Positions 1,553-42,962 of a stretch of 64,000 bases of DNA are shown here, piece by piece. The DNA is taken from NCBI GenBank assembly GCA_024679065.1, contig JAGIQG010000014.1, positions 28,086,001 through 28,150,000 of the forward strand. Reading direction: 5' to 3'. The notes under the pieces were generated by a model. It ran no database searches and was not told the origin of the DNA. It saw only the letters and a program-made list of their open reading frames with translations. The position numbers and the translations under genes are program-made. Every line of letters begins with the position of its first letter. The stretch's first letter is position 1. Origin of the DNA: Sphyrna mokarran. Taxonomy: Eukaryota.

Positions 1553-1594
1553 CTCCTTCCACAATCACGATTCCCCCAATCACTACTGAACATG
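1553..1594 (+). CDS. TIM paralog A mucin-stalk exon (42 nt)
   Basis: atctatcacag|CTCCTTCC...GAACATG|gtaagc; T/P-rich; paralogous to 32645-32701. Confidence 0.8.
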
Positions 1595-4500
1595 GTAAGC
1601 ATAGCAAATGACATCAAAAAAATTTTTGACTGTATTTATAGAAACTCTGAGAAAGAAAACAAATATAGATATTTAATATTAAATTTTAAGTGAATTTTGC
1701 TTTGATACTTGAAATATTTTATAGATTTTAAAGGTCACATATTGTTATGACCGGATGAGAGGATTTGCAGTGTATCTTGCTCCAATACTCCTCAAGTCGT
1801 ACCATTAGTTTAAATGTTAAATGTTTAAATATTAATTCACTCACCAAAATGGTCAATTATTTCCTTTACTATGATTAGACCCAGAATAAAAGAGACTTTA
1901 ACCAGGTTTCTTTCAATAAACTAGAATCATAGAATAAAATCATAGAATCCCTGCAGTGCAAAAGGAGGCCATTTGACCCATCTTCTTTTAAATCTTACCA
2001 GGTCTACCTCTGTATCCCCATGTATTTACTCCCTGATCTACAGTTTGGGACACTAAGGGGCTATTTAGTATGACCAATCCATCTAATCTACATATTCTTG
2101 GATAGTGGAATGAAACCCAAGCACCCAAAGGAAATCGAGAATGTGAAAACTCCACCCAGACAGTCACCCAAATCCAGAATCAAACCCAGATTTCAGGCAC
2201 TGTGAAGCAGCAGTGCTACCCTCTCTGCCACCATGCTGCACTAAACTCAAATGAATGATTTATTACAAAACAAAACTTTTTAGAAACAAATTGCAATAAC
2301 TGCTTAAAACATAGTTTATTATCTGAAAGTGTAACTATCTATCCCTTTTAGTTAAAACAAACAAAGGATAAACAGATAGAGGGTCTCTACAGAAATGGCA
2401 GTTGACTTTATGTAAAAATATGGACAAAGTTTAGAGGGTTTTGATGCTGTTGATCTGAGTTACCTCATGTGAAGACAAATCACTATCCCCATTAGAGGCC
2501 TGGAGGTTTTTAACCAATAGTGCAATGCATGGAGAAAAATACAGCCAGATCAATCCTTCTTGTCTCAGCTTCTTGGCATCCAAAGACAGATAAGTTCCAC
2601 TCAGATGAAGATTCCTGGCTGGATACTGACAATTGTATCGCTGCAAGAAAGACAAAGCGCATGTAAGCAAATCAGCATTTCCGATTTCCAGTTCAGTTCC
2701 AAGTGAATATTTTTTGAAGTTCAAAATTGAAAACTCATCTTTGTTATGTGATTGCCAGTAAATCAATGGCCTTTGCCTTTAAACCCAGTTTTTTCTCCAT
2801 CCATGAAAATAATTGCAGACTAAACAAGCAAATAGTCCTCACCCTCAAGAGCTATACTAGTCAAGTGATTCCTTGGAAAAGGCAGGCTTCCTTTTAGTCC
2901 AAATGGTCCCTGTTTTAAAAAAAATCAAAGTGTCTAAATAATTTACTAGTTTTCAAAAGAAAATACATCCAAGAAGTATGATTCTAACAATTTGTTAATT
3001 AACGGCACAGATTTTAAGATGAGATTCAAATATTATACATTCGCTAAAGTATCAAAGGGCAGAGGGATGAAAGTTTGAATGATTTCATTCAGTTGGTAAT
3101 TGACAATGCTTGTTCTTGTGAAGCAGAGCCGTAGAAAGTTGTCTCACCGGACTTGCCAATGAGCTAACACAGTGATAATGTCACTTGTGGTGATGTGTTT
3201 CCATCTTTCCATCTGCAGTGAAAAAGAAGCACACATTTTCTAGTTAGTCTCAGTTAAAGGATGAATTCACTCTGGCTCTGTGGATTGGGTAAGAATAATT
3301 GCATCATTTGAAACATTCCATCAAATCCAGACATTATCCAACATCAAAGACAGGCTCTTTCAGCCTGTCTATCTTTTAATCAGGTCATGGCTAATTCTCT
3401 ATCTCATTCCCATTTTCTGGTCCCATTCCCAAATCCCATTTAGATAACAGCTTGATGAGTTTCCTGCTTTTTCAGGTTCAGAGATCCTTCAGTGCTATGT
3501 GGGTGAGAGGATGTCAAGTCCTTGAGCTTCTGGATAAAGCTCTTTTAAACATGAACATATTTTTGTTGCTTTTCAGGTAACAAGACTCCAACTTACACTA
3601 ACTCACCAACTAAGGAAAATTCAACTCCACATTCAACTGTGAGCAATTCCTTTCTCTCAATATACTTACACTTTGTATTTATCTGTTGCTGGTAGGTCTC
3701 CTGTTCTGTACTGATGGGCTGTCAGAGAACAGTATTGGGTAGGTCTGACAGATAATCTCTGGGAAATGTCCCCAGATTTGTTATCCCTTATTCCCTCTAT
3801 GGGTGCCATTTTGGCACATGTCACAATTTGTTAAATTCTGGATGGGAAACACCCAAATTGTAATGTCCTGGGCGAGTGGGCTGAATTGGCTCCCCTTCTT
3901 TATTCAGCCCCCTCTGTTATTGCAACAAAAATTACCTCAAAGAGATCCCTTTCTATCGGGATAAAAAGGAACTAATTTGATCAAGCTTTCTGGAAGTAAA
4001 GAAATGGTGAGTTTATTTGCTACAAATAGCGAGAAAAAATAAAGAACACATGCATACATGTTCACACAGATTAAAAGTAAAAAACAGGTCCAAAAATAGG
4101 TTTAAAAATAAAATTAATCAGTCTTTGTCTTATCTATGAGGAGCAGATGGAGAAACTTTATGGCCATTTGAGATTCACGATTCCAGAGTGATGACTTCAG
4201 TATTTGAATAATTGGTTTAGCGATTCCAAGGTTCTGCAATTTCACTGATGGGAGTTGTCCAGCTTCCTTTTTGACTGTAGTTTCACTGATTTGGATTGCT
4301 TTCGGCAGTCAGAGAGAGAGCAAGACTTTTATTTTACTTGCCAGAGCAATGGTGACTGCTGCTGTCTTTCTCTGCTTCTGTGTCACGCACTCTGATACAG
4401 CCGCCATTGGTCCATGTTGTCCAAATTTACAGCTAATGTTTTAATCCAAGTCTCCTGTATGTCCTTGAAAGGTGAAAATCCACAAACCAAGATATAACTT

Positions 4501-6496: not shown

Positions 6497-9400
6497 ACCC
6501 CCAACCTCCAACTCCCCTCTTGATAGCTGCCCTCCCTCCAGATTGGAGCCAGCACCCCCACCCTCTGATTAGAGCTGGCATTTCCTCCCATCCTCCTCAG
6601 TTGGAGCCAGCATTTCCCCTCCAGCCCCTCCAGCAGTCAGTACTGGCATCCCTCCCACCCCTGAACATCAGACCCCTTTTCTCCAACCTCCCACCCACAC
6701 AGTCAGTGCCGGTATCCATGCCCCCTTCTCAAAACCAGCACATCCCCAGCCCCCTCAGCTGGTCCTTCTCACCACCACAAATAAATGAATCCCACTTCCC
6801 TATTGAGGCACCCTTTGGGATCCGCTCCTGACAATGCACTTCAGCACAGGTTGGGACTGCTAGGTTGCCATTCCCAGATTGACATGGTGCCGAGCTGACA
6901 GTGCCAACCTGTGCCAAGGAAGAGTGCCGGGGGCATTGTCAAGGAATTCTTAGCTATGTTCTTCTCCCCCAGAGATTATATACTTACCTTTATGCCCACT
7001 GGGGGATCGCCACAATTGGTTCATGTCTTGGTGTATCTGTTGTAAACCATGGTGATGTTATTTAAATATGTTCAATCAGGTTCACATCCATTATAGATTT
7101 GAACTTGTTAACATCACTGGCAAGGTATGGCGAAAATTGGAAATCCTGATCTTGCTGGTGAGACCTGCGTCTTCTGTGGTTTCGTCGAATCTTGAACCCT
7201 GCTGCCATTTCATCAGACAGCAAGCATGGGCTTAATATCATCCCCAAGAAGTCTGTTGCTTAACATCCAACCTGTGAACACTAAGGAGCAGGAGTCCAGG
7301 CTGACCAACAGCTTGCTCCTTGAAATCTGTCCCTCTGAAAGATTTCTTACAATTGTCTGCAGAACTGACCCAGTCTCTGTGTACTAACTTGTTGGGATAT
7401 TAGCACCAACCATAAAGAACACTCCGTGCCTCCTGTCTTTATCTATTTAAATCCAGATTCCCATGTGAAAGAATGGGTTGCCGGATTCTGCCTCTGGTTC
7501 TGATAATCATGTTCATTTATGGGGTCTTTTACTGTTCCTGTCTATAGTTGTAAAACTTTTNNNNNNNNNNNNNNNNNNNNNNNNNNNNNNNNNNNNNNNN
7601 NNNNNNNNNNNNNNNNNNNNNNNNNNNNNNNNNNNNNNNNNNNNNNNNNNNNNNNNNNNNNNNNNNNNNNNNNNNNNNNNNNNNNNNNNNNNNNNNNNNN
7701 NNNNNNNTATGATATTGCAAATAATCATGCCCTGGGTTTGCATGTGTGAATAAGCTAACCTCCTGAGTTGGACATAATGTGAGTTTGCTGTGAGTTTCTT
7801 AAAATTAGGGATTTTGAAACATGCTGCAGCCCACTTGAAATAATTGCAAATATTTTCTGCTTATGGACAGACGTCCCTAATGGAAATCTCAGTGATGGTT
7901 GGAGGGAAGCAGGAAAGAAAGACTGAATAATAAGGCCCTCATGTGACAATTAACAAAATTTAACAACCCTATGGATTTGATAGTGCAAGAATCTCTGTTT
8001 TCCCAGTTATGGCAAGTGGGAAACAGAAGGCTTGTGCCTGGATGAAAAAGCTGCGTCAAATATTCAACATGTCAAATGTTTAGAGAACCAGAGAATCCCC
8101 TTTTCTAGGGAGGGTAGGAGCCTGTGGACAGCAAGAAAGAAAGGGTTTGGAATTCAGTGGCAGGTTGAAATCATCAAAGTTGAAAGAATAATTCAGTAAC
8201 AGGAAGTGTCAATGGGGAAATTGAAGAATAACATCATGACTGAACTGAGAAGTAAACGGCTTAGGGTTGGATTTTCTTTCATTACATTAACCAATGTGCT
8301 GGAAAGATATGACAACATTGGGTGATGAAGCTGCTGCTACATTGCTTTCTCACTTCTATTTTCCTCCTCCCTATTCCATCTAGAGAGATGATGGCCTACT
8401 GGTATTATCGCTGGACTATTAAGCCAGAAATTCAGCTCATGTTCTGGGGATCTAGGTTTGAATCCTGTCATGGCAGATGGTGGAATTTGAATTCAATTGA
8501 AAAGAAATGTCTGAAAGTTAATAATTTACTGATGACCATAAACTCATTGTCAAATGTCGGAAAACCCGCCTGCTTCACTAATGTTCTTTAGGGAAGGAAA
8601 TCTGCTGTCCTTATCTGGTCTGGCCAATATGTGAGCCAGACCCACATGTATTTGTGATTGACTCTCAGCTGCCCTTCTGGGTAACTAGGGATGGACAATA
8701 AATGCTGCCCAGCCAGCGATGCTAATGTCCCACAAATAAATAAAAAAAATTGTTGTCCTGACCTGTGACTTGCAGCTAAATAAATGAAGGCAGGTGGCAG
8801 GGCCTTATCAACATTCTCATTTCCTTTTCTTTGCTGATCCTAATTACATGGAAAGAATGAAGCTGGTTAATGGAGCTGTTGTGGAAAGCCCCAATTTACC
8901 TTTTGGATAAAGGGATTGCATTGGTGAACACCTTTCCTTCTTCTCATGTCTCACCTTTTAAAATTTTGACCCAGTTTAAGGAGTTCAATTTTCTCCTTAA
9001 GATCATCTCCATTCTTCACACTGCCTATATGAATGGCAAGTTTACTGTTGCTACTTGTGATGCCCCTGAGGAGCCCCCATTTTATATTTAATTCCTGACC
9101 CAGGAAACGGAGATAGACTTAAGTTAACATTTTGGCAGTGGATTTATTGATAATCTAGGCTAAAGGGCTTGGTAAAACATAAAATTATGATCAGAGAGAC
9201 CTTAGAAGCCAAGAAGTGAAACAGGAATGTCAGAATTTGATGAATTTCAGATAATCATACCATGAGCATACTTGTTATTGACTCCATTATATCCCATTTG
9301 TATGGATAATATGAAACTTTGGATGTTTGGTGATAAATTGACCTCAAGTAAATTCAATGGTCAATTAAAATTTGTGAGCAGATATACTTGATAATGGATT

Positions 9401-12400
9401 TGATATTGCAAAGAAAGTTCCTGTTCTTTGCTTCTATTTCCCCTATTTTAGATACCAGAAAAGCTCACTCATAGCCTGATGACTCCAATTCTGTTGGCTT
9501 TCCGTGTTTCAGTTTTAATCTGCTTCATTGCAATCACCATACTCCTGTGCCGATGGAAATGTGAGTGCCACCATTTAATAATCTGCTTTAATTTTCAAAA
9601 CAACTTTTTTTATGTACAATGGTTTGACTCTGAAATCAAGATGCTTTACTGCATCAGGTAACTGCAGGTAAGGTGTGATATGTCAACTCTTACTGGCACA
9701 GCCTGCTTTGGAAACAAGAAGAGAAAATGTTGGAAAAACTCAGCAGGTCTGACAGCATCTGTGGGAAGAGAATAGGATCAACGTTTTGAGTCTGGATGAC
9801 CTTTCATCAGAACTAAAGACAAAGAAATTAGGACATGATTTATACTATGGCAATGGCGGATCCATAATTACTTATTTATTCTTTTCATCTTATCCATCTA
9901 TTTTCATTACTTCATATTGTTTTTTGACTTTACAACTTTTGAATCTTGTCTTTGTACCACCACCCCTCCTCCCCAGCTAACTGCTATGTACCTCAGTTTG
10001 TCCCCTGGCAACCTCTACATTTATTCTGCCATTTACACACTTTGATCTCTTGATAGACAGTCAGCCTTTATCACCACCATTTACATTCTCTTTGTTCAAT
10101 TACATTCCAATTTCCAATTAGTAATGGTGCCATTAGGGACCGAAGAATTTACCTCTAATCCACCCACACCATACCCACAACCTCAATGCCCAGACCAATC
10201 ACCCCTCCCATTCGTACTAATGCATAGTAACAAAGGGACCTCCCTCATCCCACCGAGCACCCCCCTGTAAATCCTGCCCCCTTTGCTATGGTGCAGAAGG
10301 AAGCTGTTTGAGCATTGCGCCTGTACCATTTGCCAAATGAACATCATGGCTCAATGCTGTTCCTGTCTTTTCCCCGTCCCCCTTCATACTTCTTCTGTTT
10401 GAGTCATCATCTAACATCGTCTTGAATGCTTCAATTGAACTTGCACCAGCGCACTTCTAGGCAGTGCATTCCAGACTCAATCCACCCGTGTGGAAATTAT
10501 ACATTATACAGACTCTTAAACAGAGATCTATCATTTGGGTAAGTAGTTTCCTCAATCTACTGCATTTTTACTCTTCTTATAGAGAATGTCATCTTGGAAA
10601 TAAAATAGGATTATTTGAAATAAAAACAGATAATGCTGGAGAAACTCAGCAGGTCTGGCAGCACTTGTGTAGAGAGAAACAGAGTTGATGTTTTGACTCC
10701 ATGGCCATTGTGCTGCTGGAGCAGCACATCGGGCTGGCAGGTATCAGCGGAGGCCATTTCGCGGACTTCCCGCTGGGAGCCACGGAAAATCTGGTAAGTC
10801 TCCCAGATTTTCCAACACGATCAGCTCCTTGCTGGAAATCAGTGCGGAGCTGATTACAATATGGAAATCAGCATTTCCATTCCATCAGCGGGCCAGGGAC
10901 TGAAGTCTCCAGCCCTCCTAGCATTTTCACCTCCACCCCGCCACAGTTCTTTACTCCTGCTGCCCACTAACGGGGAACAGATGCTCCAGTCTCATTTGAG
11001 GGAAGAGAAACCATTGAGGCCCCCCAGGAGATTAGAGGTTAGGGGTATGAACAAAGAACAAAACAGCACAGGAAACAGGCCCTTCGGCCCAACGAGCTCG
11101 TGCCACCACCTCGACGTTCCCATTTCCACCCTTGATCCCTATCTATGTTTATAGAAATCTGAATTGGTATAGAAATCTGCATTGGAACCAAATTTGCAAG
11201 ACAATTTAGGGAGAATTTGTTTTGCCAATCAGCCTAAGAGCACATTTTTGGAATGTGGGAGGAAACCGGAGCACCTGGAGAAAACCCATGCAAGCACGGG
11301 GAGAATGCGCAAACTCCCACAGACACAGGCCCAAATCCATGTATCTGCACAGTGCAGCGATAGTCACTGAGCTGTCGTATGCCTTTTGAGTGGTGTCAGA
11401 TGGTATCCTGAGACTGTCCAAGGGGCAAACAGGCACTGCCCAAGGGCTAACAAGCAATGTCCAAGGGGCAACTTGGCACTGCCGCCAGGCATTGGGCAGT
11501 GTCAAGGGGATGGGTCAGAGGGGGCAGAGTCTGTTGGGAGGATGATCGGGATGGGGGAGGTCCCTCTGCTACTATGCATTAGTACGAGTGGGAGGAGATG
11601 ATCGGGCTGAGCATTCGGGTTGGGGATATGGGGTGGATGGGTTAGAGGTAAATTCTTCGGTCTCTAATGCCAGCATTAACAATCCCTTTGTCTCATGTCC
11701 ATGACATTTTTGCCAGCTAGCAGAACTATACAACTGCATAACACCCAGCATTCAAAATGAATCTAAAACACATCCAAACTTAATTCAGAAAGTTAAATTG
11801 TCTAAGACAAGTACGAAAAGATCAACACTCCAACAATATAGAAGACAAAACTGAATAACAGAAAACAAAAGTGGGGAATCAGGGTAATATATTAGTGTGG
11901 ATAGGGGATTGGTTATTTGTTGATAAGACACTTTTATTTGTTAAACTGTTAAATCTCATGTACAACAAACTTTGAACTTGATTAAAACCAAATTGAAGCA
12001 AGTTTTCACTTACAAATATCTCTGAATCTGGCTGGACCATGCTTTGATATTTAATTCCCATATTTTACAAGTTAAGATTACTGTTTTACTCATGTTAATT
12101 GATGTACCATAGTTCAGTAGTTCAGATTCTGTCCAGCTCATTTTTAACTAAGGTGATCTAAGTCTTTGGTTGTAATTCATTTCAGTTTGAGGCTGTTAAT
12201 GACTGGAATGTGGTACAATTAAAGCTGAAGCTGTATAACTTTATTACCATGGATAATTTCATTGAAAAGTTAAAGCTCTATCACCTGGCAGTTTTATTTG
12301 TTAAAGTGTTAACTCTCCATGGCTAATTTTGTATTTTATTGTTTTTAGTGTTTTAATAAATTGCATTGTGCAATTTATGCCGATGTGGCATTAGCGTCTT

Positions 12401-14941
12401 GGACAGGCCATTGTTGTAAATGATGTAGAGATGCCAGCGTTGAGCTGGGGTAAGCACAGTAAGAAGTCTCACAGCACCATAATAAAGTGCAACAGGTTTA
12501 TTTGGATATCATGAGCTTTTGGAACACTTCTCCTTCATCAGGTTAGTGGAGAGGTACGTTCCACAAACATGGCATATATAGACAAAGACTTCATTGCAAA
12601 ATAATGGTTGGAATGCAAATCTTTACAGGTTATCAAGTCTTTACAGGTATAGACAGTGCAAGTGGAAAGAGGTTTAATCAGAGGTTAAAGAGCTGTGAAT
12701 TGTCTCAAGTCAGGACAGTTTGTAGGATTTTAGGTTTTTTCAGTGATTCTTCGCTGTGAATCCAAAGGAATCATATCTTCGCCTTCAACAACCAGTTCTT
12801 CATCCAGACACATGGAACAGCCAAGGAGATCAAATTCATACCTCACATGCTAACATCTTCATGCACAAGTTCGAACAAGACCTCTTCACTGCACAGGACC
12901 TTAAATCTATGCTATGCAGTAAATACATCGATAACATTTTCTTCCTTTGAATTCACGTGAAAAATCACTAAAACAAATACATGATGACATCAACAAGTTC
13001 CATCCCACCATCAGATTCACCATGGACTATTCTCCAGAATCAGTTGCATTTTTGGAGACACGAATCTCCATCAAGGATAGTCACCTCAACACTTCACTTA
13101 TCACAAGCCCATGGATAATCTCATGATGCTCCACTTCTCCAGCTTCCCCCCTAAACACATGAAAGAAGCCATCCCCTATAGACAAGCTTTCCACATACAC
13201 AGGATCTGCTGAGATAAGGGGCAACTCAACAGACACCTATAGTTGCTGAAAGATGGCCTCGTAAGAGCAGGATATGGTGCGCCACTCATTGATTGACAGT
13301 TGCGCCGCACCACAGCGAAAAACTGCACCAATCTCCTCAGAGGACAAACACAGGACATGACCGACAGAGTGCCCTTAGTTGTCCAGTACTTACCCAGAGC
13401 GGAGAAGCTATGACATCTACTTCAACGTGTCATTGATGAAGATGAACATCTTGCCAGGTCCATCTCTATGCCCCACTAGCCATCAAACAACTGCGCAAAC
13501 TCAAACAGACCATTGTTCACAGCAAACTATCCAGCCTTCAGAAGAACAGCGACCACAATACCCACAACCCTGCCACAGCAACCTCTGCAAGATGTGCCGG
13601 ATCATCGACACGGATACCACTTCATACATGAGAACACCATCCATCAGGTACATGGTTCATACTCGTGCGAATCGGCTAATGTTATCTATGTCATGCAATG
13701 CAGGAAAGAATGTGCTGAGACATGGTTCAATGGCGAGACCATGCAGATGCTACGACAATGGATGAATGGAGACTGCTTGACAATCACCAGGCAAGAGTGT
13801 TCTTTTCCTGTCAGGGAGCAGTTCAGCAATCAAAGGTATTCAGCTCTGATCTTTGGGTAAGCGTTCTCCAAAACAGCCTTCAAGACACAAAACAACACAG
13901 AATCGCCGGGCAGAAACTGGTAGCCACGTTCCGCACACATGAGGATGACTTCAACCAGGATCTTGGGTTCATGTTACATTACGTGTAATCCCCATCATTT
14001 GACATTGGGCTTGCAAAATCCTACTAATTATTCTGGCTTGAGACAATTCACAGCTCTTTAACCTGTGATTAAACCTCTCTCCACTCGCATTGTCTGCACC
14101 TGTAAAGACTTGATTACTTGTAAAGACTTGCATTCCAATCAGTATCTTGCAATGGAGTCTTTGTCTATATATTTGAAACCTATCTCTCCATCACCTGATG
14201 AAGGAGCAGTGCTCCAAAAGCTTGTGATACCAAATAATCCCGTTGAACATTAACCTGGCGTTGTGAGCCGTCTTATTATTGTTAATGAGGAAATGGCTCT
14301 CATTTCACTCATTTGGCTAAATGAAGATTAAATAAAATTCAAGTCCAGGAAGGATATACAGACATGGAATCAGTAGAGCAAAAATTCACAAAATTAGTCT
14401 CTGGGATGGGAGGGTTATCTTCTGATAAGGTGAGTGAACTGGAGTTAGAATAATGAGAGATTGGATAAGTACAAGATTCTGAAGGGGTTTGATAGGGTAG
14501 ACACAGAGAAATTGTTCCTGTTGGTTGGAGAATCTAAAACATGTTGGGGGGGGGGGCGTTGTCGATTGTGGAATGGGACAGAATACGATGGGCAGAACCT
14601 CAGGATAAAGAATGATTGTTTAAGACTGGGGTGAGGTACAATTTCTTCACTTGAGAGGTTGTGAATCTTTGGAATCCTCTACTCTAGAGAGTTGTGATTG
14701 CTCTCTGTATCATATTTAAGGCTGAGTTAGAGATTTTTGAGAATCCATATCGTCCACTTCTACTTGTATGTAATGTGCTTCTTGCTCTTCTGTATGTTCA
14801 ATTCACACAAACATAAATATATTTCCAAGTCCTGTTTTACTTATCTCTATCATATTGTGATGTTCAACCAGTGATTGAGTTGTTTAAAATTCATGTTTCT
14901 GGTTTTTAGGTAACTATCCAGCAAAGGAAATATTATCATGA
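1553..14941 (+). CDS. TIM-family receptor paralog A, 3' part (spliced: 1553-1594, 3577-3638, 9452-9560, 14910-14941); signal and IgV exons not in the window
   Basis: Four AG/GT-bounded exons join in frame (phases 1/1, 1/0, 0/1, 1/stop): xPSTITIPPITTEH-GNKTPTYTNSPTKENSTPHST-IPEKLTHSLMTPILLAFRVSVLICFIAITILLCRWK-CNYPAKEILS*. Each exon and its flanking intron is homologous to paralog B. Confidence 0.8.
1743..2989. mobile_element. Solo LTR-like insertion (TG...CA) with a nested V-SINE at ~1925-2240
   Basis: Begins TGTTATGACC and ends ATTCTAACA; flanks ATAT/ATTT. Absent from the paralogous intron of gene B near 33000. Confidence 0.55.
1925..2240 (-). mobile_element. HE1-like V-SINE (tRNA head, V domain, CR1-type tail)
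   Basis: The + strand shows the reverse-complemented tail (CATAGAATCCCTGCAGTGC...GGCCATTT), the V-domain and the head (CAGCAGTGCTACC...GCCACCATGCTGC). Confidence 0.8.
3577..3638 (+). CDS. TIM paralog A second mucin-stalk exon (62 nt)
   Basis: gcttttcag|GTAACAAG...TTCAACT|gtgagc; encodes GNKTPTYTNSPTKENSTPHST; paralogous to 33967-34046. Confidence 0.8.
3859..4611. mobile_element. Possible solo LTR
   Basis: TGTAAT...GTGACA ends and composition like the other LTR-like inserts; no clear TSD. Confidence 0.35.
6343..7246. mobile_element. Non-autonomous TIR element (MITE-like) with C-rich interior
   Basis: Ends GAGGTGAAATCTTACC...TAATATCATCCCC resemble the other GGGNNNGATTYT-ended elements; poly-C tract at ~6466-6496. 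Confidence 0.5.
7561..7707. other. Assembly gap (147 N)
   Basis: Run of N. Confidence 1.
8390..8750 (+). mobile_element. DeuSINE (SacSINE1-like)
   Basis: tRNA-like head, Deu-domain motif TTCACTAATGTTCTTTAGGGAAGGAAATCTGC...GGTCTGGCC, and tail GGATGGACAATAAATGCTG...AATAAAAAA. Confidence 0.8.
9452..9560 (+). CDS. TIM paralog A transmembrane exon (109 nt)
   Basis: cctattttag|ATACCAGAA...TGGAAAT|gtgagt; hydrophobic stretch ILLAFRVSVLICFIAITILLC followed by RWK. Confidence 0.85.
9712..9815 (-). mobile_element. Penelope-type terminal fragment with decayed hammerhead core
   Basis: The reverse complement reads GTT-CTGATGA-AAGGTCATCCAGACTC-AAAACGTT; related fragments at ~10617-10705 and ~61190-61265. 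Confidence 0.55.
11050..11378 (-). mobile_element. 5'-truncated copy of the CR1/V-SINE chimeric element, inside a GC-rich MITE-like element (~10710-11650)
   Basis: (TTTGTTC)n-type tail, V-domain and degenerate head shared with the copies at 20.7, 23.1 and 51.2 kb; GTATG duplicated at 11045-11049 and 11377-11381. Confidence 0.8.
12424..14274 (+). mobile_element. Penelope-like retroelement (RT + GIY-YIG endonuclease, decayed) with inverted pLTRs
   Basis: RT motifs ANIFMHKFEQ and KYIDNIF; GIY-YIG SCESANVIYVMQC...NGET...LRQWM. 12424-12730 is the inverted copy of ~14015-14274. Imperfect 14-bp TSD at 12410-12423 / 14275-14288. Confidence 0.9.
14191..14227 (+). ncRNA. Minimal type I hammerhead ribozyme motif (mutated; inverted twin at ~12509-12545)
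   Basis: TCAC-CTGATGA-AGGAGC AGT GCTCC-AAAA-GC-TT-GTGA: stems I and II are intact, but the G of GAAA is lost. Confidence 0.65.
14340..14740 (+). mobile_element. Old CR1 LINE 3' remnant (paralogous copy at ~37125-37690)
   Basis: Decayed ORF2 C-terminal motifs (AATTTCTTCACT...GTTGTGAATCTTTGGAATC). Confidence 0.7.
14910..14941 (+). CDS. TIM paralog A terminal coding exon
   Basis: ttctggtttttag|GTAACTATCCAGCAAAGGAAATATTATCATGA. In the phase-1 frame the stop is conserved with paralog B, and a 1-nt indel follows the stop. Confidence 0.7.
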
Positions 14942-19629: not shown

Positions 19630-19681
19630 ATGTTTATTACCCGGATTGTTGTTCATTTGACTACACTACTTGTTCTTTTAG
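19630..19681 (+). CDS. TIM paralog B exon 1, signal peptide MFITRIVVHLTTLLVLL
   Basis: ATG, hydrophobic core, and a perfect phase-1 donor AG|GTAAGT. Confidence 0.85.
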
Positions 19682-22600: not shown

Positions 22601-25600
22601 ATCGTATTCATGAATCCAAATTCGGCACAAAATAAACCTGCTTGGCAAAAGCCTCTTTCGGGTGCTCCAGCTTATGAAAAGGTGGTGGGAGGGGGGAAGG
22701 GTGAGGTGGGGGTGCCAGATCGATGGTGGGAGGGGGGGGAAGGGTGAGATGGGGGGGGGAAGATCATCTTTGGTGTGGGGCGGGGGGGTGAGGCGGCGAG
22801 AGAAGGGAGGTCCTATCATTTTGGTTGGGTGGGGGCAGGTCAGCTGTATCTCGGGTGAGGAGGCGGGGGGAGAAGGCCAGATTGTTGTCTACTGGGTGGG
22901 GGGGGTGGGGGGGGAGGTTGATAACAGTCAACAGTCCAGACTGGACAACAGTCCAGATTGTTGTCTGTGGTGGGAGGTTGCAGGGAGACTGCTACCATCT
23001 GCGAGCAATTGGTGAGGGTGAAGGGGGGGATAGAGGGTCGCGAATGGTCTGAGAAGTGGGTGGATAAGGGGGGGGCAGTTACGTTGCGGGGGTGGGGTGA
23101 TGTCTATGGGGGCTATTGAACAAAGAGCAAAGAACAAAACAGCATGGGAAACAGGCCCTTCAGCCCAACGAGCCCGGGCCCCACCTCAATGTTCCCACAT
23201 CTACCCATGATCCTTGCCTATGTTTATAGATCTATGGATTAAAAACCAAATTTGAGACAATTTAGGGAGAATTTGTTTTGCCAGTTAGCCTAAGAGCACA
23301 TCTTTGGGATGTGGGAAAAAACCGGAGCACCCGGAGAAAACCCACGCAAGCAGGGGGAGAATGCGCAAACTCCCACAGACACAGGCCCAAATCCATGTAT
23401 CTGCACAGCACAGCGATAGTCACTGAGCTGTCGTGTTGCCCATCAAATGGTCCAGGTCAAGCGTACATTAACGACGTGAAGCACTAGGATACTCTCGAAA
23501 AAAAATCCAAGAGCAGCCCTCTCACGACCCATCGCGTGTATGCCCCTTGTTAGACAACAAGGTGGACCAAAGCACCTGTTGCTCCCACTTTTTCACTGCC
23601 AGGCCGCTTCATCCACTTTTTGTGGCCTGGGAGCGATGTGATAGGGGCATGTTTTTCAAATCTTTTTCCTCACTGCATATGTGCTGTTCAACGCTTCAAT
23701 TGGGGCTGCAATGCTTTGGCGCAATAAGCCCCACACACAGCCTGATTCAGACTGGCGATTTTTTTTCGAGCTAAGTGCCTATGTGAGCGTCTGAGAACAG
23801 ATTTCCAACTCGGATCTGAATTGCGCCCAGATTCAGCACGTAGAATCAAAATGGTAAAATTGGGCCCATCATATTGCCATTAGTGGACAGTTGGCAAGAA
23901 AAGAGTACCATCTTTTTCTTGTTTGTAATATTAGATAGGAATGTGGAAGGATATGGAGCTAAATGGAATAAATAGAATTGTGGCACTGATCAACTTCGAT
24001 CTAACTGAGTGGTGGAAGAGGCTCGGTTACTGAATATCTGACTCCTGTTTTTATTGATAAGTCATGATATTCCCGTCACGGCAGCTGGTTGGTAAGCTGT
24101 ATTCTCTGTACTGTGCTGTCTGTTCATTCTCTCTCACTGCAATGGACACTGAATTATTCCTGTCTTTATCTGGATTGTTTCGGGTTCAGTCCCCTCTGAA
24201 GTGCGAGGATTCCTGGGGCAGTCAGTCACATTGCCCTGCACATACTCTGTTACACAGCATGGTAAAACTGCAATGTGCTGGGGCAGGGGAGAGTGCCCCA
24301 AATCGGGTTGTTCACAAACAGTGGTTGTAACAAATGGGAAAACTGTAACTTACACATTCTCCTCAAAATATCACCTTGATGGTAAAATAGAGGAAGGGGA
24401 TGTATCTCTCACCGTGGATAATCTCAGTAAAGGAGACAGTGGCTGGTATTGCTGCCGTGTAGAGATATCCGGCCTTCTTAATGATCAGAAAGAGAATTTC
24501 AATCTGCTGGTTTTGAAGGGTAAGTCAGTTCAATATTATCCATTACCTGTATTTCTCCCATTTCAATACTGATTCTAGATTTATTGTTGATGTCTTGTTG
24601 AATATCGAGGGATGAAGCGGGGATGTCCCGCTCCCACTTGCATCCGCTCGGTTAAAATTGCGCCCTCGTCCGCGACAATACGGAAGGTTTAATGCACACA
24701 GACAACGAGCCTGTTACTTTTCCATAGAGAAGCGCTGTGTTAATTGGTGACAGTGGCAGAACATGGGCAGGAGAGATACTTCACAGCTAAAGATGAATGA
24801 ACTGTATCCCTGGGTATACACTGCATTCCCGCTGAATGTAGAACGGGATTTAAATATTTGGAAGCAGCAAATAACAATGTAACAATTATGACATATAGCT
24901 AAAAATATGCAGTACATGAATATTATGCTATAATATTTATTGTATATGATTATTTTTCGATGGGTGATTACTGAGTTCACTGGACAACTAAATGATTTCG
25001 TTCATTGTTTCATGTGAAGCTGTGAAGTAGTTCACCATAAAACAAAGATGCAGGGTTAGCCTTGCTCAGAAAGCCAACAGATACTTTGGTTTTATTTCCT
25101 TCCTGTTGGATGTTGCTCCGTATTTTAACTGGTTCCCCTGAAATTTTATATTATCCAGTTTTTCTTTCTGCCTGTAGTTTTACTTCATTTTTCTCAGTTG
25201 CTGCTGGCAATCGAATGATACCAAACACAGATGCAGATGGATATTTCTTTAGGGGATCTGGACGTGTGGAAACTTTGTGATGGAGAGAAACATGATATGA
25301 GTGAGGGGCGAATCAATGCAGCTCAATGGTTACAGTAACATTTTGTTTGACATTGCAGAGTCTGCACTTTCTCCTTCTCATGATATCTTTTACACAAGTG
25401 AGACTTCATGTTACTAAGTCTTTCCATGTCAAATATAGTGACAAATACACATTTGTTGTGGATTAGAGATATGAGGGTAGAACAGAAAGCTTTCATTGGG
25501 TAGCAGTAAGTAGAAATGCCTTAAGCAGAAATGCCACATGTAGTTCATTAAATCCCTACAGTTCAGAAGAGGGCATTCGGCTCACTGAATCTGCTCTGAC

Positions 25601-31600: not shown

Positions 31601-34600
31601 TACACATCCTTTTTCCAGCTGAATTGGCCATGATCATTTCATTTGATTACTGTTCCACTGAAGGCAATACTAAGTCTCCATTCTATAACAACTCACTATC
31701 TACCTACCATAGGCCATTTAGAGTGTCCACTTATCCGCAATGCTAAAATCAAAGTGACCACAAGAAAACTGAATCAACTTTATCCAAATCATTCAATATT
31801 CCATTCAAAAATCAACTAATCATTCCTGTCATTTCAGTCATCCATGTACCCTGAGTGCCTTTGTTGGTTCTACTGCTCCTACATAATACTACCGTAGTGG
31901 CTACAAGATATATGGTGTCTGACACTGCAGATAACCTTGCTGGCCAATCTCCAAGAGCTCTGTGTCTCATCAGCTCAACTTCAAACTGTGTTCACTTGGC
32001 ATGGAAAGCATCAGTCTGGACTGGGTGAGAGGCAACAGCAATGGAACTAGCAGAATAGCAATGGTGGGAGAATGAACTTTTTACCCCATATGCGGGTAGC
32101 AGATTCTTCCGTTCCATGGAGCCACTGCCACTTTCCCATGGTGACATTGAGCATTCATAGCCATTTGATGGAGTACACAGTTTGTTGGACTGCACTGACA
32201 TGGCTCCAAAAACTATCCCACAGTCAAGAAATTAGCCACATTTTTAACACGTGCTAGTCTGTGTATCCCAATGTATATGAAGGTTAAAATCTCTCATTAA
32301 GACTACTCGTGCTACATACTTGCCTAATTACAGAACTCATACAAGCTACCACTTCACAGCCATGATTGGGGATCCATACATAATTCTTGCATCATCCCTT
32401 CAATTATTTTCAATTTCATAACCCTCCCATAAAATCTTCACTGCTTGTTTATATCTTGTCGTATAATTGGGGTGATTTTTATCCTGAAGTATAAAGGCCC
32501 ATTTATCCCCCTATCATTCCTGTAAACCTTATCATCTGCTACGTTTTTCTAGCATATTTTAATTAAGTATGAATACTTTTGGTACAATTGTAGTTTAAAA
32601 TTGTTGCAGAAGTGATTGCCAATAATATTTTTTAGCTTTCACAGGTGATTCCACAGGAACGATTCCTCCGTTCACTCATGTGACCCAAACTACTGGACAC
32701 GGTAAGCGCACCAACTTCAGTGAGATCAAACACATTGCGTGATTTTGCAGCAGCATTCGCTGTGATAGTAAACTGCGATGCGGACGTAGAATCTCGTGAG
32801 AATCAGAAAACAAGATTCTCACTAACAAGATCTGATTTTCTCTGCGCACAGAGTAGAAAATTCCACCCATTGATTTGGTTTTTAAAAATTGCTATTGATC
32901 AAAGAATGAAAACAAAATTCAGCATTTAATATTAAATTTGGGGAAACCTGCTTTGATACCAAACATACGGTCTGTGAAATTATCTCAAGAAATAATCATT
33001 ATGCAGGTATTAATTAATAGTACAAATTTTTAATTTGTGATTGAAAATTATGAATAGACAGAGATATCAAAAGGACAGAGGGATGCACGTTCCAATGATT
33101 TCATGTGTGACAACTGAACATTCTTATCAAGCAGAACAATGGAATTCTTTGAAGAAAGGACAATTGCAAGCTGTATTGGCGGTCTTGCCAATGAGTTAAT
33201 ATGATAATAGTCTCGCTTACAATGATGTGACCCTGTCATCCATCACAGAACTTGTCTACCTGCGTTAGTGAAGAAGTTCACATTAACTGGATAGCTTAAG
33301 TTGAGAAATCAATTCACACTGGATCTATCCACTGGTACAGATATTTTTTTAAATTAATGTCACAAGTAGGTTTCCATTAACGCTGCACTGAAGTTACGGT
33401 GAAAATCTCCTAGTCACCATACTCCAGTGCCTGTTCGGGTACATTGAGGAAGAATTTAGCATGGCCAATGCATCTAACCAACAAGTCTTCTGGACTGTGG
33501 AAGGAAACTGGAGCACATGGAGAAACACACACAGACTTGAGAGGAATGTACAGATTCTGCACAGACAGTAACCCAAGCCAGGAATCAAACCCTGGTCCCT
33601 GGCACTGTGAGGCAGCAGTTCTGAACATTGTGCCATCCCAGTAATAGTATCCTGTCAATTGAAGGAGATTTAGATAGAAGCTGTCCCACCCAACCTAACC
33701 ATTAGGGGACAAAGAATAAGAGCAGAGTAGAAACATATGGCCCCTCACGCCTGTTATGCCAATTAATAAGATCATAGCTGATCTTCTATCTCATCTCCAC
33801 TTTCTGGCTTCATTCTCATATCCCATTGAAATAATAACATGGTGAGCATTCTACTTTCTGAGCTCCAGAGATGCTTCATTGCTACATTGATGAGAAGATA
33901 CCAATTGTTCTGGATTTCTGGATAAGGCCCTTAAAAACATAATCCCTTTTTTTTGCTTTCTTTCAGGGAACAAGATTTTCTCTTCCACTAACTCAATGAC
34001 TTCCTCACCAACTAAAAAGAATTCAACTCAAACTCCACACTCAATTGTGAGCAATTCAATTTTTCCCCAAATGCAATGGTTTTGTTTGCTTCTGTATTTT
34101 CTTGTTATTCTGGTCGATCTCTTGTCCCTGAGCTGATAGACACCCAGCATAAGGTGAGGAAGTGATAAGGGAGCATTGATGGTGAGTGAGAAATTTGGGT
34201 GTTCGTGATTGTTTCGTTTATACTGGTTTGGGAAATGATGTGGGAGTAGTCTGGAGGATCAAGGTGTAAGATGAATAGTGGGTTATAAAGCAGTTTCAGA
34301 AACAATAAGAAGAATTGATGAAGGAAAGGACTGAATATTTAGAGGGAGGGTATTTGATGCAGAGTTCTGAACATTAAAGGGATTTACAGCTGCAGTGAAC
34401 AGTTGAGTGTGAAAGGAATAAATTAGTGAAGATTTGAGAGCCTGTTGAACATTGGCAGCCATGTGTACAAGACGCACTGCAGGAACTCACCAAAATTCCT
34501 TTAGGCAGCAACTTCTAAACACATGACCACTACCATCTAGACAGACAAGAGCACCAGATACATGGAAACACCACCACCTGGAGATTCCCCGCCAAATCAC

Positions 34601-37600
34601 CCATTATTCTGACTTGGAAATATATAGCCTTCACTATTGTTGGGTCAAAATCTTGAAAATTCTTCTCTAACTTATTGTGGTGTATCTACACCTCAGGGAC
34701 TGTAGCAATTCAAGAAGGCAGCTCACCACCACTTTCAAAAGGGCAACTAGGGATGAGCAATAAATATTGGTCATGCCAGTGACACCCATATCCCATAAAT
34801 GAATAAGAAAAACACAAGGAAATCTTTATGCAGCTTTTTCCAAAGTTATTAAAGAAAGAATAACTAGAAATTCAGAATTAGTTTAAGAATTATGTCAGGA
34901 TGTAGCCCTTCACAGGATAGTTGCATCACACAAGTGCTAGGTAACAACCATGTCCAATACGTGAATCATAATTTTCAATTTCAAGACAATCACTGTTGCT
35001 AAATTCCCCATCATCAACACCCTGGGGAAGAGTTGGGACTGTCTGTCACTACGGGCAAAATATTTAACAGTCGTGGTCACAAGATAGAGTTTGGGTATAC
35101 CGCAGTGAAGAACTTAGCTCCTAACTCCCCAGTGTCTTTCCATCATCTATAAGCAACAAGTTAGGTGGGATGGAATTCTCTCCATTGGTTTGGATGAGTA
35201 CAGTTCCAACACTGAAACAACCCAGGATAAAGCAGCCCGCTTGATCAACTTCCCCAACCACCATTTTCAACATCTTTCTCTCCATTGCCAGCATATAGTC
35301 TTCAGTGATCCAAGAAGGTAGCTCACTGTTACTTTCTCAAGGACAATTAGGAATGAGGAGTAAATGCCAATGCTGCCAACAATGCTCACTTTGCAGGAAT
35401 GAATCAAAAACAGAATGAAAAAGAATCAAATCCAAGAAACTGGGACAAGATCATGATAGAAGTCCTGCTCTCATTTTTCAGGGATGAATTAATAAAAAAA
35501 TCAGTTATAAAAACTTGGGAAAAGATATGTTCAGCATCATAGAAATTATATTATAACACAATGTGAATGGGGTGGCAGAATGAATGAATTTCAGACAATC
35601 ATTCAATGTGCTGCACTTGATATTGACTCACATAATTTTTGCATGTTTACTATGAATCTTTGGATGCTGCGATACCAGGAATTCTGGAATTCTTATCACT
35701 TTTTTTCACACCTCATTTCAAGTCATGATCAATGGTTAATGAATATCACTTTGTCCTGTAATGATTTTTTAGCTGTCTTTCTTGCATTGATGCTGGTTTT
35801 AATATTGCAGAGAAAGGTTTTAATTCTCTAATTCTATTTCTCTGCTTCAGATACCAGAAGAGTTCCCTCCCAGCCTGATTGCTACAGTTCTGTTGGCTTT
35901 TCCTGTTTTAACCTGCTACATTATAATCACCGTGCTCCTATGCCAATGGAAATGTGAGGTGCCACATAATCTGCCTTAATCCTCATATCATGAGGATTTT
36001 TTTACACAGATAGGGTTTATTTTTCAATTGATATATGACGGTTTGAGTATGAAACAATGATGCTTTCTTTTGTCAATATAATTGCAGGTGACTAAGATTA
36101 ACTGTTCTGTTTCATCTTTCTATGAAAATCTATGGATTCCTGTATAGCATTCAAAGTACTGATTAACCCTGGTGTAAAAAGATGTTTCCTCTCTGCAGGC
36201 TTGCACTGCCTTTTATGAGAATGTGTATCCATATGCTTGAGTAATAGTTCAAAAGTAGAGCCAAATTTCGTTAAAGAACTTCTATTTTGTAACAAAATAC
36301 CCCATGGCATTTTCAAAATGGAAGATGTTGAATAGGTGCTAAAGGAATTTCAATGGGTGACTGGTCAAAGGGATGGTTTGGGACATTGATTCCCAATCTT
36401 TTATCTGTTCACCACTGATGATTGAATTCAACTGTCTGGATCCTAATTTCAGCATCTCCTTCTCTAAATCTCTCTGCCTTTCTAACTCTCAAGGAATCCT
36501 TACAGTGCAAAACGAAGCCATTCGCCCTATCGAGCCTGCACTGACAACAATCGCATCCCATCCCTGCAGCCCCACACGTTTACCCTGCTAATCTTCCTGA
36601 AACTAGGGTCAGTTTAGCATGGCCAATCAACCTGTATTCCCTCATTAACTGGCCCTATCTGCACACAAGGCGCCAACTCCACTAGCTTCTCTTCATTTAT
36701 CGAACCTTGTTGGGAAAACACCTACATATTTGAAAAGTTTGTTACGTTTTACTATCTTCCTTTATAAACTGAGGTCATGCGACCAGATCAAATTGGTTGT
36801 TCTAACAGTGAGCAAAAGTTTTGGTTGTAATTCATTTCAGTTTGAAGCTGCCAATGACTGGAACAAGATGTAACTAAAGCTAGAGCTATCTAACTTTACG
36901 ACCATGGATAAATTCGCTGAAGGGCAAGGGCTCTGTCAACTGTACTTTCATTTGTTAAGCTGTTAATTTTCATTGCTAATTTGTATTTATTGTTTTTAGT
37001 GCTTTAATGAATGGTATTGCTGTGGAATTTATGCTGTGGAGGCATTAGCCTGTTGGGCAGATCATTGTTGTAAATGAGAAGTTGTTGCCAATTGACTCAT
37101 CTGGCTAAATAAAGATTAAATAAAATTCGAGTACAAGAATAAAATAAGTCTTTTGTACATGATTTTGTACATGACTTTGGTGAAACCATTTTGGCCTTCA
37201 TTTATAAGGCAGGATGTAGAGCAAAAGATTTACTACAGCAAAGATTCACAACAGTAGTCTCCGGTATGGAAGGGTTGTCCTCAGATAAGGTGAGTGAACT
37301 GACTCTGTATTGTCTGGAGTTAAAAGAATGAAAGATGATTTCATTGGACAAATCCAAGATTCTGAAGAGCATTGCTAGAGTAGACTCGGAGAAATTGTTT
37401 TCATTGGCTGGAGGGAGCTGGGAGGGAAGGGCTCACAGCCTCAGGATAAGGGCTGATTGTTTAAGACTGGAATGAGGAACAATTTCTTCACTCAAAAGTG
37501 AATCTTTGGAATCCTCTACTCTAGAGATTTATGAATGCTCCATGTATCATATTGAAGACTGAGCTAGATTTTTGGTCACTAAGAGAATCGAGGGATTTGG

Positions 37601-37855
37601 GAAAGAGTCAGATCAATGGAACAATGATCATAGTAAATAGTGGGGCAAACTTGAGAATCTATATTATCCAGTTCTGCTCCTATATAGTGTGTCTCCTGCT
37701 CTTCTATCTGGTCAATTCGCACAAAAATAAATGTATTTCCAAATCCTGTTTTCCTGTACTCTATCATATTGTGAAGTTCAACCAGTGATTGAGTTGCTTG
37801 ATACTCTTATTTCTGGTTTTCAGGTAACTATCCAGAAAAGGAAATATTGTCATGA
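19630..37855 (+). CDS. havcr1: T-cell immunoglobulin and mucin domain (TIM/HAVCR-like) receptor, paralog B; 6 exons (19630-19681, 24190-24519, 32645-32701, 33967-34046, 35851-35953, 37824-37855), 654 nt, 217 aa
   Basis: Signal peptide + six-Cys TIM IgV + short mucin stalk + TM + short tail. All junctions are GT/AG and in frame. Family assignment is secure; orthology (HAVCR1 vs HAVCR2 vs TIMD4) is not, so the symbol is approximate. Confidence 0.85.
20691..21347 (+). mobile_element. CR1 LINE 3' end whose 3' UTR contains a degenerate V-SINE (chimeric element)
   Basis: ORF2 C-terminus SKVVEAGTLELFKKYLDGHMNRMGMEGYRKLI*, then unique UTR, V-SINE body and (TTTGTTC)n tail; GTTCAA duplicated at 20685-20690 and 21344-21349. 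Confidence 0.85.
21601..22266. mobile_element. MITE-like TIR element with a ~100-bp MITE nested at ~22118-22218
   Basis: GGGGTAAATCTC...GGGAGAATCCGCCCCC ends; right end homologous to 58940-59042, which lacks the nested piece. Confidence 0.65.
22368..23867. mobile_element. Non-autonomous TIR element (related to 53864-55277, opposite orientation)
   Basis: TIRs GAGCCTGATTTTACCATT / AATGGTAAAATTGGGCCC; G-rich low-complexity interior. Confidence 0.75.
23119..23578 (-). mobile_element. CR1/V-SINE chimeric element copy (3' UTR only)
   Basis: Closely similar inverted copy of 20879-21347; TTG on both flanks. Confidence 0.85.
24190..24519 (+). CDS. TIM paralog B exon 2, TIM-type IgV domain
   Basis: GQSVTLPCTY...MCWGRGECPKSGC...GDVSLTV...DSGWYCCRVEISGLLNDQK: the six-Cys TIM signature; phase 1/1; donor AAGG|gtaagt. 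Confidence 0.95.
25550..25875 (-). mobile_element. HE1-like V-SINE
   Basis: V-domain (TGGACTGTGGGAGGAAACTGGAGCA...GAATGTGCAAACTCCACAC) and head on the minus strand. Confidence 0.8.
26130..27010 (-). mobile_element. Old CR1 LINE ORF2/3' remnant
   Basis: Decayed reverse-strand CR1 RT and C-terminal sequence. Confidence 0.6.
27372..27635 (+). mobile_element. HE1-like V-SINE (internally deleted)
   Basis: Head GGCATGGTAGCACAGTAGTTAGCACTG, B box GGATTCTATTCC, tail GTAGGGATTCTGTGATT. Confidence 0.8.
28460..31196. repeat. Minisatellite, 33-bp unit GTGTTCTCACTCCTGATTGT(T/C/A)ATTTACTGG(GT/GC/AT)A, roughly 83 copies, with 31-bp variants
   Basis: Direct inspection; lies in intron 2 of TIM paralog B. 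Confidence 0.98.
32645..32701 (+). CDS. TIM paralog B exon 3, mucin stalk (57 nt) GDSTGTIPPFTHVTQTTGH
   Basis: gctttcacag|GTGATT...GGACACG|gtaagc, phase 1/1. Confidence 0.85.
33430..33640 (-). mobile_element. V-SINE
   Basis: V-domain and tRNA head on the minus strand. Confidence 0.75.
33967..34046 (+). CDS. TIM paralog B exon 4, mucin stalk (80 nt) GNKIFSSTNSMTSSPTKKNSTQTPHSI
   Basis: Strong pyrimidine tract, ttctttcag|GG...TCAATT|gtgagc, phase 1/0. Confidence 0.85.
34455..35410 (+). mobile_element. Two 3' remnants of the LINE family that shares its tail with the DeuSINE
   Basis: TTCAAGAAGGCAGCTCACCACC...GGGCAACTAGGGATGAGCAATAAAT tail at ~34710-34810 and again at ~35310-35410. Confidence 0.65.
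35851..35953 (+). CDS. TIM paralog B exon 5, transmembrane (103 nt) IPEEFPPSLIATVLLAFPVLTCYIIITVLLCQWK
   Basis: tctgcttcag|ATACCAGAA...TGGAAAT|gtgagg; paralogous to 9452-9560. Confidence 0.85.
37824..37855 (+). CDS. TIM paralog B terminal coding exon (CNYPEKEILS*)
   Basis: ttctggttttcag|GTAACTATCCAGAAAAGGAAATATTGTCATGA. Confidence 0.7.
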
Positions 37856-42910: not shown

Positions 42911-42962
42911 ATGTTTATTACCAGGATTGTCGTTCATTTGACCACACTACTTGTTCTTTTAG
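42911..42962 (+). CDS. Signal-peptide exon 1 of a third TIM paralog (C); downstream exons not found in the window
   Basis: Encodes the same MFITRIVVHLTTLLVLL, with donor AG|GTAAGT. Confidence 0.7.

Follow-up and report, generated by a model that had tools for sequence, protein, structure and literature searches.

A TIM-family gene of Sphyrna mokarran with an intramembrane arginine and a short tail, a candidate adaptor-coupled partner of a tyrosine-tailed TIM

The window analysed here, a stretch of 64,000 nucleotides from the genome of Sphyrna mokarran, lies in a cluster of TIM-family genes. It holds the last four exons of gene A, an intact six-exon member of the family whose leader and IgV exons lie upstream of the window, and the exons of a second gene, gene B. 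The features of both are as follows, with coordinates prefixed G000:C446 being those of the contig that carries the window.

G000:C446:28073124-28073166, plus strand: gene A leader exon, upstream of the window; AG/GT sites and phase intact
G000:C446:28073361-28073708, plus strand: gene A IgV exon; with the leader, about 12.5 kb upstream of the window
Window 1553..1594, plus strand: gene A mucin/stalk exon 1; phase 1-1
Window 3577..3638, plus strand: gene A mucin exon 2, Thr/Ser/Pro-rich; phase 1-0
Window 9452..9560, plus strand: gene A transmembrane (TM) exon; AG acceptor in phase 0, GT donor in phase 1; 21-residue helix with Arg at position 6
Window 9503..9505, plus strand: codon CGT of the gene A intramembrane Arg
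Window 14910..14941, plus strand: gene A last coding exon; completes the 13-residue tail, no ITAM or ITIM
Window 19630..19681, plus strand: gene B leader exon
Window 24190..24519, plus strand: gene B IgV exon; GG at the canonical acceptor (24182-24183), in-frame AG 6 nt downstream
Window 32645..32701, plus strand: gene B mucin exon 1; coordinates obtained by counting along the printed sequence
Window 33967..34046, plus strand: gene B mucin exon 2; coordinates obtained by counting along the printed sequence
Window 35851..35953, plus strand: gene B TM exon, same class as that of A; Arg replaced by Pro, 6-nt in-frame deletion
Window 37824..37855, plus strand: gene B last coding exon, homologous to that of A

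All splice sites of gene A are AG/GT, with consistent phases and an intact frame, and by exon count the product has 211 amino acids. It has a signal peptide, an IgV domain, a Thr/Ser/Pro-rich mucin stalk that is short and made by two small exons, a single TM and a cytoplasmic tail, a layout shared with mammalian TIM-1/HAVCR1, TIM-3/HAVCR2 and TIM-4. When the IgV was compared with the PDB, all 15 matches at E<=1e-10 were TIM-1/2/3/4, the best being mouse TIM-1 (2or8, E 9e-36). Alignment to TIM-1 and TIM-4 chains shows that the WGRG-C motif, the extra CC'/FG cysteines and the FG-loop Asn-Asp are kept, the loop reading IFND in gene A and WFND in the mammalian proteins. We take the extra cysteines and the Asn-Asp to form a metal-ion-dependent ligand site. 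The name given to this TIM site in a passage of PMC7142236 is MILIBS.

The TM exon translates as IPEKLTHSLMTPILLAF-R-VSVLICFIAITILLCRWK, and the helix is followed by a tail of 13 residues, RWKCNYPAKEILS, that ends at the stop codon. A first-pass annotation of the window had read a TM arginine and a tail of about this length in gene A, and both readings stand: the best 21-residue Kyte-Doolittle window, ILLAFRVSVLICFIAITILLC (mean 2.77), places the Arg at position 6, inside the predicted helix, and 15 apolar residues separate it from a cytosolic RWK. Mammalian TIMs have uncharged TMs, and gene A differs from them in its intramembrane Arg, its 13-residue tail and its short mucin region. A GPI-anchor signal was rejected on inspection because a basic juxtamembrane stretch and a charged tail come after the helix. 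Compared with the PDB, the TM exon gave one chance match only (E 1.4), and the TM-tail part gave no usable match in the ESM Atlas.

The codon itself is well attested. A contig from the probable source run spans window positions 9300-9532 with 0 differences, that run being one that may not be independent of the assembly, and sequencing runs of three other organisms show no change at 9503-9505 and only a synonymous C>T at 9502. Sequencing error as the source of the Arg was rejected on these grounds. The TM exon is 97% identical to that of a Mustelus asterias protein, and the M. asterias RefSeq model P0013 has a tail identical to that of gene A. An extra stalk exon of P0013, which corresponds to window 5562-5636, was excluded from gene A, the region having stops and no clear donor here. 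The last intron of gene A also holds a decayed retroelement (window ~12740-13990), likely of Penelope type, with a GIY-YIG-like stretch; a related copy downstream of gene D, described below, adjoins a Pfam GIY-YIG match.

A genome search with the IgV of gene B returned eight matches at E<=1e-8, of which four lie in tandem on contig C446 and belong to genes C1, A, B and D, while four more distant ones lie on contig C938. Chicken TIM-4 as query found no further TIM-like IgV on C446. C1 (G000:C446:28056871-28057100) keeps the same Arg TM as A and has lost the donor that A uses at the TM exon, so that its tail would come from read-through or depend on a weak site; beside it, at G000:C446:28045515-28045736 and 28049078-28049179, are pieces of leader and IgV exons. 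The IgV of gene D lies about 9 kb past the window end. The TM of this gene is uncharged, and its last exon has a single Tyr, in the EENVY motif that ends it as in the tails of mammalian TIM-1 and TIM-3; the middle tail exon of D was not located. Mammalian TIM genes have MED7-ITK-CYFIP2 and SGCD as neighbours. The cluster occupies 28.0-28.2 Mb of C446, and CYFIP, a BTK-motif gene, MED7 and a sarcoglycan gene are found on the same contig at 61-70.6 Mb, 33-42 Mb away. A Pfam scan of the flanks (the 100 longest of 458 open frames) gave mostly retroelements and one pantothenate kinase exon (L024:2619-3041, minus strand, about 35 kb downstream of D), the sole non-repeat gene in the flanks scanned. 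On C938, the four tandem TIM-like IgV exons (G000:C938:7448007-7457729) have 41-53% identity to the gene B IgV. Sawfish and catshark models (P0002, P0005) are adhesion GPCR E-like, with GAIN, GPS and 7TM regions and two or three N-terminal TIM-like IgV domains, and the C938 exons may belong to that gene.

Protein searches, which were non-exhaustive, gave 36 elasmobranch proteins, and after removal of two adhesion-GPCR fusions and six models without a TM, 28 were kept. Seventeen of these form a class with a basic TM and 11 have an uncharged TM, with an N[VI]Y tail motif in 10 of the 11. The basic residue is Arg in 16 of the 17 and His in the remaining one (Scyliorhinus torazame P0006), and it stands exactly 15 residues from a cytosolic R/K/Q-W-K in all 17, although some of these rows are isoforms of one gene, and thus not all independent, and the database entries are gene models rather than experiments. 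Ten species are represented, comprising the sharks Mustelus, two Scyliorhinus, Heptranchias and Chiloscyllium and the batoids Hypanus, Hemitrygon, two Mobula and Leucoraja; Amblyraja radiata (P0281) makes an 11th species overall. Only the tyrosine-tail class was found for Cetorhinus, Heterodontus, Rhincodon and C. plagiosum among the matches listed in this non-exhaustive search, and no chimaera protein was among the named matches. In the basic class the residues of the stalk near the TM vary while the Arg and its spacing are fixed across sharks and batoids, and the TM core is strongly conserved, with identities at V, F, T, L, W and K columns. Within the cluster, the TM exons of A and C1 differ by eight replacements over codons 1-12, and by one conservative replacement and five silent changes over codons 13-35. 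Together these patterns indicate that the TM core of the Arg class is under constraint.

The retention of Arg in 16 of 17 proteins from ten species of sharks and batoids argues that the Arg-TM class is ancient and common to both groups rather than a lineage novelty. The first-pass annotation had proposed that this lineage itself evolved an Arg-bearing TIM, a view that the distribution contradicts, while the conservation of Arg that it had looked for in sharks and rays was found. It had also allowed for chance or error at one base. A new one-base change was rejected given the conservation across the elasmobranch class, and by comparison with other runs and with gene B the Arg is ancestral, kept in the former and lost in the latter.

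Gene B is the copy in which that loss has occurred. Its TM exon reads VLLAF-P-VLTC and is 6 nt shorter than that of A, in agreement with the proline and 6-nt deletion first noted there, and a contig from the probable source run, which may not be independent of the assembly, matches window 35700-36100 with 0 differences. The Arg-less gene is present in at least two organisms, the deleted form also occurring in the run of organism G. A B-like contig in the run of organism C has an undeleted TM sequence, and the TM tree joins gene B to a protein of Scyliorhinus torazame that bears Arg (SH-aLRT 83, a modest support), from which gene B is best read as a derived loss. Since an in-frame AG lies 6 nt downstream of its GG acceptor, gene B may still splice. 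The intron after its IgV exon contains a 33-bp minisatellite of 83 copies with 91% matches (window 28461-31196). An intact orphan copy of its leader exon is found at window 42911-42962, inside a 940-bp duplicated block; because D has its own nearer leader (G000:C446:28158577), this copy may be what is left of a gene since lost, or may serve as an alternative first exon.

The IgV and TM exons of the cluster have different histories. IgV exon identity is 97.1% between C1 and D, 96.3% between A and D and 97.4% between C1 and A, against 44-75% in flanking windows, and the islands of near-identity around these exons extend over 430-480 bp. Over 325 bases of the IgV exon, C1, A and D are separated from one another by 8-13 differences, and gene B by 24-28. 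Across the 28 elasmobranch rows the IgV tree requires 11 changes of TM label (shuffled mean 9.0) and a single Arg-class clade is rejected (p-AU 2e-34), and a wider IgV tree of 43 rows requires 13. By contrast, the tree of the TM region from the same 28 rows, built on 39 columns only, requires one label change, with support of 100. Thus the IgV trees group by lineage and the TM trees by class. Heptranchias provides an example in P0015 and P0277, which have identical IgV domains, different TM classes and separate accession series. Ligand-binding domains alike within a lineage, joined to old and separate TM exons, are by this comparison the concerted-evolution pattern of paired receptors, and gene conversion is the likely cause of the near-identity between Arg-class and Tyr-tail IgV exons. 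The same pattern has been put down to gene conversion for CD300A/C in PMC12447643 and for the Xenopus ceacams in PMC5112662.

Gene B had been put forward as the paired counterpart of A. That role more likely falls to gene D, outside the window, because D shares the IgV of A most closely while having a different signalling end. A and D, which are linked, resemble paired receptors in that their ligand-binding domains are nearly the same and their signalling ends are not. The ITIM pattern is absent from all 11 database proteins of the Tyr-tail class, and with gene D lacking it the A/D pair need not be one of activating versus inhibitory receptors.

We consider it fairly probable that gene A encodes a receptor whose TM Arg pairs with FcR-gamma or CD3-zeta, and that it acts as the activating partner of a Tyr-tailed TIM. 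The proposal starts from the exon chain of leader, IgV, two short mucin exons, Arg TM and 13-residue tail, from the conserved Arg and its depth in sharks and batoids, and from IgV exons that, lineage by lineage, are near-identical in Arg-class and Tyr-tail genes beside old, separate TM exons, a likeness for which gene conversion would account. The IgV would bind phosphatidylserine through the kept FG-loop Asn-Asp of a MILIBS-type site, the Arg would assemble with the Asp pair of FcR-gamma or of zeta-zeta, and the signal would pass through the ITAM to Syk/ZAP-70. Gene B would be a copy that lost adaptor coupling and now serves as a non-signalling tether or is in decay.

The genome contains an adaptor gene with a TM Asp and an ITAM. 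This FcR-gamma-like gene (G000:C446, 11.04-11.05 Mb) has a TM with Cys and Asp, is closest to FcR-gamma in the PDB and is followed by two exons that encode a complete ITAM; the genome also has a CD3-zeta-like TM exon. The Asp of the FcR-gamma-like TM stands 15 residues from its own cytosolic Arg, the same count as for the Arg of gene A, the register of which would also equal that of the zeta-binding Arg of TCR-alpha. A search for the TCR-alpha constant domain, made for this comparison of register, gave no match. According to a portion of PMC1440944, short-tailed activating receptors combine one basic TM residue with an acidic pair, FcR-gamma partners using an N-terminal Arg and DAP12 partners a central Lys, and the tail of gene A, with neither ITAM nor ITIM, suits such a receptor. 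Other points count against coupling. The Arg of gene A is at position 6, compared with position 3 in FcaRI, where it lies above the FcR-gamma Asp at position 6 (PMC1440944, same portion). The NxxR motif described for LILRA2, PIR-A, NKp46, GPVI, OSCAR and FcaR (section 6; PMC2413239, in part) is absent from all 18 elasmobranch rows, which have Leu or Trp at position -3. Furthermore, P0006 has His, and the Arg is missing from gene B of at least two organisms. TM context matters, given that a polyleucine TM with the Arg kept reached only about 11% assembly (PMC1440944, same portion). A complex prediction that set an FcR-gamma TM dimer beside the orthologous TM region from M. asterias scored 0.12 (mark 0.34), which speaks neither for nor against pairing. 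The earlier suggestion that A is a candidate ITAM-adaptor-coupled activator fits an Arg that is in the helix and conserved, and a genome in which FcR-gamma- and CD3-zeta-like genes are present.

An Arg at this depth might instead snorkel to the outer-leaflet headgroups and recruit no adaptor, leaving gene A as a TIM-4-like non-signalling tether or decoy that shares ligands with D. We regard this as unlikely. The lack of NxxR, the His variant P0006 and the persistence of the Arg-less gene B would fit it, as would TIM-4 itself, which works without tail tyrosines and the TM of which is dispensable for engulfment (PMC7142236, in the passage cited above). However, the apolar stretch after the Arg is just 15 residues long and needs the preceding five to make up a helix, and a snorkelling residue sits poorly with an Arg and a spacing that stay fixed in sharks and batoids beside a variable stalk. 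The Arg might alternatively bind another membrane partner, such as a DAP10/DAP12-type adaptor or another receptor chain, in place of FcR-gamma or CD3-zeta. Here too the absence of NxxR is favourable, and the whole TM core is conserved beyond the need of a single-residue contact. Against it, DAP10 and DAP12 have their Asp close to the middle of the helix, and among type I partners DAP12 favours those with Lys (PMC1440944, same portion), the Arg depth is that of the FcR-gamma Asp, and a DAP10 family search of the genome, a weak one for split exons, found nothing over the cut-off; we hold this reading to be quite unlikely.

Finally, gene A could be a silent or decaying copy, and the likeness of the IgV exons could reflect recent duplication or chimeric gene models rather than gene conversion. 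The cluster does turn over, as C1 has lost its TM-exon donor and the IgV acceptor of B is mutated, and the M. asterias model of the gene A orthologue lacks a proper leader. All six exons of gene A nevertheless keep their splice sites and frame, and the four IgV exons are separate in this assembly, with a likeness that ends at the exon edges, and we think decay or chimerism very improbable. Adaptor coupling through FcR-gamma or CD3-zeta remains the reading that we prefer.

Among known receptors, the nearest parallels to this preferred reading are the FcR-gamma-coupled FcaRI, LILRA2, PIR-A, GPVI, OSCAR and NKp46 and the Xenopus XFL TM1, from which gene A differs in lacking NxxR and in having its Arg at position 6 rather than 3, and the FcR-gamma-coupled Arg receptors also differ from it in ectodomain, that of gene A being a TIM IgV with mucin. 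XFL TM1 has TM and tail on one exon (PMC2413239, in part), whereas gene A has them on separate exons. In CD300A/CD300C, Siglec-11/16, CEACAM1/3 and the Xenopus ceacams the ligand-binding exon is likewise homogenised per lineage while the signalling ends stay distinct (PMC12447643 and PMC5112662, in part); in contrast to these gene-converted pairs, partner D has a TIM-type EENVY Tyr and not an ITIM, and opposite signalling is only putative. The MDIRs of clearnose skate are also a multigene family of the Ig superfamily in a cartilaginous fish, with activating and inhibitory forms, and are CD300/TREM/pIgR-like as described in part of PMC3031540; the gene A IgV matches TIM structures, and the two are set apart by description.

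Of 104 named TIM matches from outside the elasmobranchs, 79 have a TM, and in all 79 the TM window is free of Arg and Lys at positions 4-17. A profile search gave 129 new representatives (best 150 of 1706), of which 81 have a TM window and 10 have Arg at positions 2-7. Eight of the ten are from frogs (P0162, P0164, P0168, P0187, P0197, P0202, P0217 and P0259), most of them short-tailed, and the other two are long-tailed. Four frog TIMs, from Dendropsophus, Hyla, Phyllobates and Engystomops, have NxxR and a 15-residue or similar core; the remaining Arg-TM frogs are Bufo, Hyperolius, Lithobates and Pyxicephalus. Turtle-type TIMs (P0068, P0070, P0075, P0081) have Arg or Lys at the outer edge of the TM, where it may lie outside the bilayer, tails of about 6-16 residues and IgV domains intermixed with those of Tyr-tail turtle TIMs, and the lungfish TIM-like P0213 has a central TM Lys in a DAP12-like placement. 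Compared with the shark row, only two ranoid-type rows rise above shuffles (z 4.8 and 4.0), inconsistently against ray rows. Basic-TM, short-tail TIMs similar to those of sharks are present in frogs and turtles, possibly of common origin with the shark class.

Proteins of the class are already in RefSeq as automatically named HAVCR1/TIMD4-like models. In the full-text literature searched, which takes in only a minority of subscription journals, we found no description of a TIM with a charged TM or of a shark TIM cluster. TIMs are heavily studied as phosphatidylserine receptors, checkpoint targets and virus entry factors, and CD300A and CD300C also bind phosphatidylserine. Tentatively, and with more doubt than confidence, we raise the possibility that an ITAM-adaptor TIM arm has existed over much of jawed-vertebrate history, in sharks, rays, frogs and turtles and in none of the sampled birds and mammals, and that it has been gene-converted with a Tyr-tailed TIM as a counter-receptor against pathogens that exploit phosphatidylserine binding by TIMs. 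If gene A is coupled as proposed, the TIM family would join the paired-receptor systems, with an adaptor-coupled class kept since the split of sharks and rays, and the ligand-binding domain of TIMs would seem to have been under pressure from pathogens for a long time.
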